A stretch of 17,975 nt of DNA, taken from a virus. Both the position numbers and the translations under genes were made by a program. This document shows positions 15,407 to 17,403 of this stretch, in pieces. The first letter of the stretch is position 1. Every line of letters begins with the position of its first letter. Below the pieces are notes generated by a model. That model saw only the letters and a program-made list of their open reading frames with translations. It did no database searches and was not told the origin of the DNA. Where the stretch lies: IMG/VR virus record IMGVR_UViG_3300028897_000772; one strand, written 5' to 3'.

Positions 15407-16052
15407 ATACTTGGTGTTTGAGGGTAATGATGGTTGTGGGAAAACAACCATTGCAGAAATAATTTTATATAAGCTTGCCAGTGATGGAAAAGATGTAGTT
15501 CTTACTAAAGAACCTGGATCACCACTCTTAAAATTTTGTCAAAGTATACGTCAACTGATCATCCATGGAAAAAAACAAGATCTGGCTGATGTCACATATG
15601 CCCACCTTTTTTATGCAGATGCACATGAAAATTTAAGACAAGTAGTTGAACCTGCTCTTGCTGCCGATAAATGGGTTGTGAGTGATAGATGTGTTTTAAG
15701 TAATTTTGCCTATTGGCCAAAGGAAGTTCATTATGTTCATAGAGATCATATAGAATGGTTTGCAGGTTTGAATCCTATAGTTTTTTATCTATATGTCAAA
15801 CCTCAGATATGTTTAAAGAGACTTACTACAGAACGAGAGGGATTAAATGAATTTGAGAAAACACATGTCGTTAATAAGCTTGAGCTTATTCACAGCAGAT
15901 ATGAAACATATGTGATCAATACTTTACAAGAGAAAGAAATTCTATATTATGATATCAATAATATGATATCTATTAATAAAGTTGTGGATAGTATATGGAA
16001 AATAATAACTAATAACCTTTACAAAGGAGAGACAGATGAACCAACTGCTTAA
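15381..16052 (+). CDS. tmk: Thymidylate (dTMP) kinase
   Basis: GGAGG lies 9 nt upstream of the ATG at 15381. The P-loop is LVFEGNDGCGKTT and a DRCVLSNFAYW segment (DRY-like) is present. The track start at 15360 is probably too far upstream. Confidence 0.8.
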   Translation: MSERRKPSRYLVFEGNDGCGKTTIAEIILYKLASDGKDVVLTKEPGSPLLKFCQSIRQLIIHGKKQDLADVTYAHLFYADAHENLRQVVEPALAADKWVVSDRCVLSNFAYWPKEVHYVHRDHIEWFAGLNPIVFYLYVKPQICLKRLTTEREGLNEFEKTHVVNKLELIHSRYETYVINTLQEKEILYYDINNMISINKVVDSIWKIITNNLYKGETDEPTA

Positions 16053-16500
16053 CACAGGAACTAATTTAATTGCTTATGTTCCTCCATTGATGGTGCTTGT
16101 ATTGATTCTTGTTGGAATCAAGTTTGTAAAAACCCTCATGAAGGTGAATGAAGTCTGGGATAAAGATGAGGATCTAGCAAAGAGATTAAAGAAAAGCTAC
16201 TTGTGGCAACTCTTTATAATGACACTTGCTCTCTTCTTCCTTGTCTTTGCTGGCTTTTTTGCCTATGGTCCTGGTAAAAGACAGAGAACAACCGACTATC
16301 AAAAGTCAGGATGGATGGAACGAGTAAAAGAACTTCCTGATGAAAAGCCTATTGCTGTGATTACTCAGGAAGGTGAAGCAAATAAAGATAAAACAGGTAC
16401 ACTTCCTAAAGTGGCTTCAGAGGAAGAATACAAGAAAAGCAAGGAAGAAGCAGATAATGAAATAAATGAAATCCTAAAAAGAAAACAGACACAACAATAG
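16036..16500 (+). CDS. Two-TM membrane protein with a charged C-terminal tail
   Basis: SD AAAGGAGAG. TM helices are LIAYVPPLMVLVLILVGIKFV and LWQLFIMTLALFFLVFAGFFAY, followed by a K/E-rich tail. It sits immediately upstream of the SPFH gene (an NfeD-like position). Confidence 0.6.
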   Translation: MNQLLNTGTNLIAYVPPLMVLVLILVGIKFVKTLMKVNEVWDKDEDLAKRLKKSYLWQLFIMTLALFFLVFAGFFAYGPGKRQRTTDYQKSGWMERVKELPDEKPIAVITQEGEANKDKTGTLPKVASEEEYKKSKEEADNEINEILKRKQTQQ

Positions 16501-16515
16501 AAAGGAGAATATGTT

Positions 16516-17403
16516 ATGAGAAGATTCAAAATGTTGATGTTGATTTTAATGGTTGCAGCAATGTTTATTGCTACTGGTTGTACTGAGAGGGTTCCACCTG
16601 GATTTATCGGAATGGTTATGACTCCAGGTGGTTTGACTGGTGAAGTTCTTGCACCAGGAAACCATACTTGTTACAATCGTGATAGATTGATTCTCATTGA
16701 GTATGTTGAAAAGGCATATACAGAGCCTTTAAGCATCCTTTGTGATGATGATCTTAACTTTAAATTTGATCTTAAGATTCGTGTTATGACACTTGCCGAT
16801 GATAACAAGGCAGTCATGGAACTTTTAGGCAAGCAGGGTTCTCAGATTACATGGGATGGTGATATAGGTGTTTTGCCATTTGATATTCTGTATAGAACAT
16901 ATGTTGCCGATCCTGCAAGATCTATAGCAAGAGGGGTTGTGTCAAAATATAAGACAACCGATATCCGTAATGCTAGAGATGAAATTACAAAAACAATTAC
17001 AGAAAAACTTACTAAATCTGTTGAGGGTACACCTGTAAAAGTCACTCTCATAGCTACCTCAAATTTCGATTATCCTGATGTTATCACTAAAGCTGTGGAA
17101 GATAAGAGAAGACGTGAAATTGAAATTGAGACTGAGAAAGCAACTCAGGCTATGGAAATTCTTAAGCTAGATAATAGAAAAATTCTGGCTCAGAAGAGAA
17201 AGCAGGTTCGTGCTACTGAAGCAGAAGCAGAAGCAGTTTATGTAACTGTTATGGGTAAGGCACTAACCTCTGACTACCTCAAGCTGAGAGAAATTGAAAG
17301 GGATATAACTCTTTATGAAAAAGTTTCTCCAGGAGATAAAGTCATAGTAACTGGTAATGGTGGTGTTACACCCTTGATTGATGTCACACCTGAAAAGAAA
17401 TAA
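16516..17403 (+). CDS. SPFH/band-7 (prohibitin/flotillin-like) domain lipoprotein
   Basis: SD GAAAGGAG with an 8-nt spacer. The signal peptide has the lipobox IATG-C. The SPFH-type core is VPPGFIGMVMTPGGLTGEVLAPGNH...LNFKFDLKIRV, followed by a coiled-coil region EIEIETEKATQAMEILKLDNRKILAQKRKQ. Confidence 0.7.
   Translation: MRRFKMLMLILMVAAMFIATGCTERVPPGFIGMVMTPGGLTGEVLAPGNHTCYNRDRLILIEYVEKAYTEPLSILCDDDLNFKFDLKIRVMTLADDNKAVMELLGKQGSQITWDGDIGVLPFDILYRTYVADPARSIARGVVSKYKTTDIRNARDEITKTITEKLTKSVEGTPVKVTLIATSNFDYPDVITKAVEDKRRREIEIETEKATQAMEILKLDNRKILAQKRKQVRATEAEAEAVYVTVMGKALTSDYLKLREIERDITLYEKVSPGDKVIVTGNGGVTPLIDVTPEKK

Follow-up and report, generated by a model that had tools for sequence, protein, structure and literature searches.

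Why does a virus carry a gene for a predicted SPFH lipoprotein directly behind a gene for a small membrane protein, and do the two products act together? The gene pair is located near the end of IMG/VR virus record IMGVR_UViG_3300028897_000772, a stretch of 17,975 nucleotides that is referred to here as the window. The upstream open reading frame (ORF) encodes a protein with two transmembrane (TM) helices and the downstream ORF the SPFH protein; genes and proteins are termed A and B, respectively. The pairing of A and B was found to be conserved among distantly related phages. The pair recurs in many phages of Gram-negative bacteria, where it probably forms a cage on one of the host membranes. 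Structural understanding of SPFH cages (prohibitin, HflK/C, stomatin, flotillin and vault) is recent, and their roles in bacteria are largely open.

The SPFH lipoprotein B and the hairpin protein A

B matched the Band_7 profile (PF01145) over residues 25-211 with an E-value of 4.7e-13 and 50.0 bits, the cut-off being 23.6, and the PHROG family phrog_200, annotated as "lipoprotein", over residues 4-291 (E 1.9e-36, profile positions 81-360 of 379). The N-terminus reads MRRFKMLMLILMVAAMFIATG-C, with three basic residues and a 14-residue hydrophobic core ahead of A-T-G-C22. Written as MRRFK-MLMLILMVAAMFIA-TG-C22, the lipoprotein signal has its cysteine within the first ~35 residues. Cys22 was invariant in 35/35 and in 45/45 aligned relatives, including those from phages PAK_P3 and PA1C, and position -1 of the lipobox was glycine or alanine in all 35 aligned sequences. 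The lipobox thus points to lipidation of B. A previous interpretation made from the DNA letters alone, the sequence-only reading, had described B as an SPFH/Band 7 protein that is lipid-anchored through a lipobox (ATG-C) and had proposed the Band_7 search; B passed this search, and the phrog_200 match, the invariant cysteine and the AlphaFold and Foldseek results given below agree with the description. In total, 188 homologues of B were found at E<=1e-5.

The AlphaFold model of B, built from 45 sequences, has a predicted local distance difference test score (pLDDT) of 81. A beta-rich and alpha/beta SPFH part (residues 23-185) starts one residue past the cysteine. Behind it come a helix of 62 residues (188-249) and a second one (252-268), the elements that form the wall in SPFH cages, and then two short strands. 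Foldseek aligned the model over its full length with prohibitin (8rrh, 3e-13) and with HflK/C, stomatin, erlin, QmcA and flotillin. Further matches of the prohibitin-HflK/C type were 7vhq, 9cz2 and 7wi3, QmcA (8z5g) matched at 8.4e-9, and major vault protein (MVP) chains were ranked lower. When the B-family profile was compared to the PDB sequences, prohibitin-2 was the sole match (1.3e-5, over positions 134-285). Residues G273, D274, K275 and I277 are nearly invariant, and the C-terminal strands may correspond to those that form the cap in SPFH cages. As judged from the model, B is an exported, lipid-anchored, prohibitin/HflK/C-like SPFH protein. It appears to carry every element used in SPFH cage building, from which we infer that it could assemble into a cage.

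The prohibitin and HflK/HflC cages, which enclose FtsH-type proteases and face the periplasm or the intermembrane space, were the best full-protomer structural matches of B. They resemble B in the order of SPFH domain, long helix, second helix and C-terminal strands and in their location on the non-cytoplasmic side. They differ in their anchor, which is an N-terminal TM helix and not a lipobox cysteine, and in their partner, which is a second SPFH paralogue and not a small hairpin protein. B is furthermore phage-encoded, and it is linked to a protease only by analogy. The HflK/HflC arrangement of two SPFH paralogues, each with an N-terminal TM helix, does not apply to the gene pair studied here, since A had no Band_7 match and B carries a lipobox.

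The phage SPFH lipoproteins of phrog_200 (PAK_P3 gp041, PA1C QBX32474 and Vi01-like Sajous1 gp200) have the same lipobox and domain order as B. Relatives of B were present in 96 phage records at 24-35% identity; B is 25-28% identical to proteins from isolated phages compared to 50-60% for metagenomic and Myxococcota proteins. The family is already annotated in many phages, therapeutic and jumbo phages among them, as "lipoprotein", "SPFH/band 7" or "prohibitin". It has been found at low counts by mass spectrometry of phage preparations, and lambda-type Hfl effects have been speculated upon. The literature searched assigned it no function and mentioned no partner gene. The PAK_P3 transcriptome paper and its supplements gave no timing for gp40/gp41; the early genes named in this block are gp34, 37, 38, 45 and 46. 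While the B family is known, its partnership with A appears not to have been described previously.

A, which the sequence-only reading had correctly described as a two-TM protein directly ahead of B, shows two hydropathy peaks that AlphaFold models as a helical hairpin (helices 11-43 and 45-77). The loop between the helices contains eight lysine or arginine residues (K/R). The hydrophilic tail carries the motifs FFAYGPGKR, SGW, LPDEKP, EGEANKDKTG-LP-VA and a terminal EEADxxIxEILKR helix, and it is the best-conserved region of A, holding most of the invariant columns of the alignment (A3). Confidence in the model as a whole is low (pLDDT 66, predicted template modelling score 0.30). Residues 78-154 are modelled as short helices at 92-98 and 106-115 and a helix at 129-153, with no strand, and outside the terminal helix no stable fold is predicted for the tail (pLDDT about 50-56); pLDDT in the tail region ranges over 50-80. 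A tail that is conserved yet modelled as unstructured may well be one that becomes folded upon binding a partner.

The A family comprises 20 proteins of 48-100% identity. A profile search of 1.84 billion representatives retrieved 51 clusters of 93-170 aa, every one stand-alone and without fusions. We found no family for A in Pfam, PHROG or PADLOC, nothing beyond sub-threshold noise in NCBIfam, and among the PDB sequences no solved relative but only TM noise (E>0.3). Searching the 50,697 phage records with A by tblastn gave zero matches even at E<=1; A evolves too fast for pairwise search. Going by its conservation, A is a genuine conserved gene.

The topology of A was read with the positive-inside rule from 13 partner proteins. 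The N-terminus ahead of the first TM helix was devoid of K/R in 10 of them, the inter-helix loop held 2-8 K/R and at least as many K/R as D/E in 13/13, and the stretch beyond the second helix was mostly acidic or Pro-rich. Taken with the rule, this distribution of charge predicts N-out, loop-in and C-out for A, and its tail would then be located in the periplasm together with B.

ORF A starts with ATG, and there is a 17-nt overlap between it and the stop of the gene ahead, which encodes thymidylate kinase (PF02223, 1.9e-27). The gap between A and B is 15 nt, and each gene has a separate AGGAG ribosome binding site. Just past the stop codon of B lies a GC-rich hairpin, GGGGAGGGG-AAAC-CCCUCCCCU, with a folding energy of -21.9 kcal/mol (z -4.5), a stability that was equalled in 0/200 shuffles. 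As it has no canonical U-run it was not listed in the terminator scan; it is a possible end of the transcription unit. Judged from these signals, A and B are laid out as parts of a single transcription unit that ends past B. The pair sits between the thymidylate kinase gene and a gene resembling those for nucleoside 2-deoxyribosyltransferases (NDT-like), and its surroundings are replication and nucleotide-metabolism genes both here and in relatives.

Conservation of the pairing

Starting from B, we found it adjoined by an A-like gene, whose product is a charged-tailed hairpin protein of 115-165 aa throughout. This was the case in the window's phage group (loci L002, L006 and L009-L012) and likewise in L004, where B is 46% identical and the upstream genes are different, in L018 (a phage-like contig of 356 kb) and L019 (124 kb), and in L023, L024, L026, L027, L032, L033 and L034. 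The same was found for Pseudomonas phage PAK_P3 (gp040-gp041) and the phiKZ-like phage PA1C, at 28% B identity. Across the paired loci beyond the window's group, B identity falls from 59% to 27% and the flanking genes vary. The distance between the two genes varies from -10 to +50 nt, and PA1C, L023 and L035 each show a start/stop overlap of 4 nt. The A-like gene is located directly downstream of B in L029, in reversed order, and two genes downstream of B in phage Boevelstad, which indicates that the association survives rearrangement. Starting from A, a Band_7 gene was found to adjoin the A relative in every informative contig, including that of the distant relative P0183, which lies in another context. 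The sequence-only reading had staked its case on conservation of the upstream gene with the SPFH gene in related genomes; adjacency in all phage-like contexts examined is stronger than what it claimed.

We also applied a filter based on architecture alone: a protein had to be 95-175 aa long, to have two and only two hydrophobic segments among its first 95 residues, and to carry a hydrophilic tail of 40 aa or more. In 21 loci the filter picked 17 of 132 small ORFs, and all 17 were the neighbour of B. With 0/115 among the other ORFs, the pairing is more than chance. The A profile itself detected the partners in L019, L032, L033, L024 and L018.

Two observations on single loci were made in the course of this comparison. 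Upstream of the SPFH gene of L029, positions 1329-3826 encode an ATPase-like protein of 637 aa and, on the other strand, a protein of 159 aa that has an HNHPSG motif and by eye is JAB/RadC-like. Copies of B in Myxococcota metagenome-assembled genomes (L030, 4001-4861; L031, 4001-4894) have housekeeping genes (those for DsbD, VKOR-DsbA, MreB, MreC and SecG) as neighbours, and the GC content of these contigs is 54-58%, compared to 35% for the window.

Proposed role and alternative explanations

To the following model we give a probability of about 0.5: B makes up an SPFH ring or cage in the periplasm, A docks onto it as TM partner, and the two are made together in the replication phase and fence off or shield membrane proteins or a membrane patch. 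B would be exported via Sec, cut and lipid-modified at Cys22, so that its SPFH domain would be held flat on the periplasmic leaflet of a membrane; the first strand starts one residue past the cysteine. By means of the 62-residue helix, the second helix and the C-terminal strands, B may assemble into a ring or dome like those of prohibitin and HflK/C, which would fence off a patch of membrane. A would form a helical hairpin in the inner membrane with both ends in the periplasm, and its tail, disordered alone and ending in an amphipathic helix, would dock onto B. A could in this way supply a TM component to a scaffold that is merely lipid-anchored. It may furthermore retain B in the inner membrane, since B is without the residue for Lol avoidance. 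Both proteins would be made from one transcript. The location of the pair among replication and nucleotide genes suggests that it acts during infection and not at lysis. By analogy with prohibitin and HflK/C, the role that we consider most likely is the corralling or shielding of membrane proteins, or else the stabilization of a patch of the infected cell's membrane. Protease control, envelope stabilization, superinfection exclusion and anti-defence are among the candidates.

Several observations weigh against this model. Position +2 after the cysteine of B is threonine, and aspartate is found there in no family member. In E. coli a lipoprotein without Asp at +2 goes to the outer membrane, and by this rule B would be sent away from the helices of A. 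The A profile misses the partners of PAK_P3, PA1C, L004, L026, L027 and L034; these distant partners share architecture and position with A, homology being unproven. The two chromosomal Myxococcota homologues (52-53% identity) have no partner gene and are the sole partnerless relatives of B, so B can exist without A. The periplasmic location of the tail of A was read from the positive-inside rule, and in the A protein of the window itself the predicted topology is less clear-cut, with four K/R in the 15 residues beyond the second TM helix. Contact between A and B, on which the model depends, is likewise something that we infer. Finally, the role of the phage SPFH protein has been called unclear in the literature (PMC7760394; PMC13239085).

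If the sorting rule is followed, the pair may instead be a tether across the envelope, acting for example in superinfection exclusion. B would then be Lol-sorted to the outer membrane, the Pro-rich tail of A would reach it there, and the complex would block or reinforce the envelope against a second phage or lysis from without. The missing Asp throughout the B family and the location of the pair among non-lysis genes fit this explanation, as does a prophage HflK/C-like protein of Pasteurella, likened to B by description only, that occurs in outer-membrane vesicles (PMC9872710). By our estimate the tails of A, of 50-85 aa with up to 8 prolines, could span much of the periplasm. Among the known phage exclusion factors, T5 Llp is a lipoprotein and T4 Imm a small inner-membrane protein. 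The placement of the SPFH domain right after the lipidated cysteine favours the inner membrane, however, as a flexible linker is typical of many outer-membrane lipoproteins. We know of no SPFH assembly on any outer membrane, and to our knowledge the periplasmic SPFH cages sit only on the inner membrane. PADLOC gave no match either, nor did the pair resemble any known exclusion protein, and we consider the tether unlikely. A lysis device is much less probable still. Here A and B would be the i-spanin and o-spanin of a divergent two-component spanin, or a holin/antiholin pair timing lysis. The pair does recall Rz/Rz1 in that the gene for an inner-membrane protein with a periplasmic C-terminal part precedes a lipoprotein gene, at times with a start/stop overlap, and the two TM helices and charged tail of A superficially resemble class II holins. 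The window contains, however, a separate lysis cassette (2841-4612, + strand) with an endolysin and spanin-like genes, 12 kb from the pair, and in it and in its relatives the pair is located among replication genes. None of the three spanin features (a single-TM coiled-coil i-spanin, a short Pro-rich o-spanin and a position in the lysis cassette) was found: A has not one but two TM helices, and its tail of 77 residues is mostly non-helical, while B is a folded SPFH protein of 273 residues. A spanin was therefore rejected on TM count, size, fold and location. A class II holin was rejected as well, since the topology predicted for A (N-out/C-out) is opposite, its conserved tail is longer and its gene lies outside the lysis cassette. 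The cassette with its spanin-like genes does suggest that the host is diderm.

The sequence-only reading had likened the pair to NfeD-SPFH operons, and in E. coli QmcA-YbbJ, S. aureus FloA-NfeD and Pyrococcus PH1510-PH1511 an SPFH gene indeed stands beside a gene for a small integral-membrane partner with which it is probably co-translated. If the likeness were one of descent, A would be a short form of NfeD that binds the scaffold through an OB-fold at its C-terminus, as in QmcA-YbbJ. QmcA of this complex is among the structural matches of B, and NfeD is thought to promote SPFH oligomerisation (PMC13086221). What stands is the likeness in working, a small membrane protein beside an SPFH scaffold; homology of A to NfeD does not. 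A gave no hit to the NfeD profile PF01957 at E<=1, no NCBIfam match of the NfeD kind and no relative in the PDB, and its all-helical model, with a tail that is helical or disordered, has no beta-barrel where an OB-fold had been proposed. Neither an OB-fold nor a protease fusion was seen in any of the 51 A-family clusters. NfeD partners are reported only for the cytoplasm-facing SPFH subfamilies 1, 2 and 5 and not with the periplasm-facing SPFH3/4 (HflK/C, prohibitin-like) (PMC2636767), and QmcA-YbbJ protrudes into the cytoplasm (PMC13086221; PMC2636767), whereas B has an export signal and the A-B pair is predicted to face the periplasm. Of four defining features, A thus shows adjacency and co-orientation with an SPFH gene and lacks the profile match, the OB-fold and the cytoplasm-facing partner. 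NfeD homology is thereby refuted, and we regard an NfeD-SPFH operon as highly improbable. The explanation to which we give the least credit is that A and B have no functional link and are neighbours merely through the shared gene order of related phages. In the window's phage group the block DnaB-dUTPase-TMK-A-B-NDT-like-UDG-PolB is indeed collinear, but the pairing is kept where all flanking genes differ (L004, L018, L019, L035, PAK_P3 and PA1C) and under the inverted order of L029 and Boevelstad, and the architecture of A has no background among the other small ORFs. Mere synteny was rejected, as the pairing outlasts both change of context and inversion of gene order.

The window also encodes an MVP-like protein, as the sequence-only reading had noticed; the shoulder domain of MVP is SPFH-like. 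The further suggestion that two cage-forming scaffolds are used together was found to be weak. A signal peptide is missing from the MVP-like protein, which is therefore probably cytoplasmic, whereas B would be periplasmic; this would place them in different compartments. There was no pairwise similarity between the two (E 0.87), and B was rejected as a recent paralogue of the MVP-like gene. Relatives of the MVP-like protein among the phage records were confined to LR756500, LR756501 and LR756503 (462-735 kb, 44-45% identity). All three are named "uncultured phage", a name that is absent among the 96 records with B relatives, so the two proteins do not generally travel together. The MVP-like protein had no PHROG or PADLOC match, and the IMG/VR scan gave no confirmed relative. 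Bacterial MVP homologues have been reported in Myxococcales (preprint 10.1101/872010); with the Myxococcota homologues of B, both phage scaffolds have relatives in that lineage.

The preferred model of a periplasmic cage with a docking partner would add a lipid-anchored, split form to the known modes of SPFH membrane attachment. The phage SPFH lipoproteins have a hairpin partner in phage-like contexts, are predicted to face the periplasm and are paired with a protein other than NfeD. A vague annotation thereby becomes a two-gene system open to testing, for which PAK_P3 gp040/gp041 of Pseudomonas aeruginosa offers a tractable model. More tentatively, and with more doubt than belief, we propose that phages of diderm bacteria have a dedicated and hitherto unrecognised two-protein system. 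It would assemble an SPFH cage within the periplasm of the host, a cage that isolates a patch of the envelope during infection, and in it a fast-evolving, phage-specific hairpin protein would stand in for the NfeD or the N-terminal TM helix of cellular systems. If this is true, the cage might keep out superinfecting phages, weaken abortive-infection effectors that target the membrane, or capture the FtsH-type quality control of the host. Were B to sit on the outer membrane, this would be the first case of an SPFH assembly with a tether across the periplasm.

Features of the window and neighbouring genes

Table 1. Features of the A-B region and of other genes in the window referred to in the text.
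Feature	Position	Strand	Basis
MVP-like protein, 666 aa	89-2089	+	MVP_shoulder 3e-29, Vault_3 2.5e-8, Band_7 6e-7
Endolysin	2841-3368	+	Peptidase_M15_3; phrog_894 2.9e-24
Membrane protein	3365-3760	+	
Membrane protein, TM helix and coiled coil	3699-4103	+	Weak Rz-like match
174-aa protein with the layout of a unimolecular spanin	4088-4612	+	N-terminal lipobox FLASC and C-terminal TM helix
Shine-Dalgarno AAGGAG of ORF A, 6 nt ahead of ATG	16024-16029	+	Sequence
ORF A, 154 aa, hairpin partner of the SPFH lipoprotein	16036-16500	+	ORF list
A, TM helix 1, ~residues 11-31	16066-16128	+	Kyte-Doolittle peak 2.35; AlphaFold helix 11-43
A, TM helix 2, ~residues 55-77	16198-16266	+	Kyte-Doolittle peak 2.40; AlphaFold helix 45-77
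A, hydrophilic tail, residues 78-154	16267-16497	+	Conserved columns; AlphaFold
Shine-Dalgarno AGGAG of ORF B, 8 nt ahead of ATG	16503-16507	+	Sequence
ORF B, 295 aa, SPFH/Band 7 lipoprotein	16516-17403	+	Band_7, phrog_200, AlphaFold, Foldseek
B, signal peptide and lipobox (MRRFK, hydrophobic core, A-T-G-C22)	16516-16581	+	Sequence; Cys codon 16579-16581
B, SPFH (Band 7) domain, residues 25-211	16588-17148	+	Pfam envelope; AlphaFold 23-185
B, coiled-coil-type helix 188-249 and second helix 252-268	17077-17319	+	AlphaFold; Foldseek full-length alignment
B, C-terminal short strands 275-278 and 284-287 with GDKVI motif	17338-17376	+	AlphaFold; conservation
GC-rich hairpin just past the stop of B	17419-17450	+	RNA fold

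The NDT-like gene behind the pair (17457-17975, + strand) runs off the end of the window, and its matches to nucleoside 2-deoxyribosyltransferases are weak (E 0.0025-0.003, below cut-off). In related contigs a gene likewise follows the pair and precedes the genes for UDG and a family B DNA polymerase, and the copy in L002 is visibly the same protein. A megablast search of the region against the phage records gave no match, so there is no close cultured relative among them.

The 598-aa ORF at 5447-7243 (+ strand) contains the Cys-rich motifs NPTCIYCY and CCATSECITCPNAC near its middle and C-terminus and matched nothing in Pfam or PHROG. It is followed by three adjacent paralogous genes on the same strand (7240-8981) that are 34-40% identical, at 7240-7668, 7669-8550 and 8547-8981, the middle one of which holds two copies of the paralogue unit. 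All three begin with MRF/MKF-x-KYL-x-EK. The ORFs at 2315-2839 (phrog_16075, 1e-46) and 4609-5025 have a similar N-terminal motif, with no BLAST similarity to the three paralogues.

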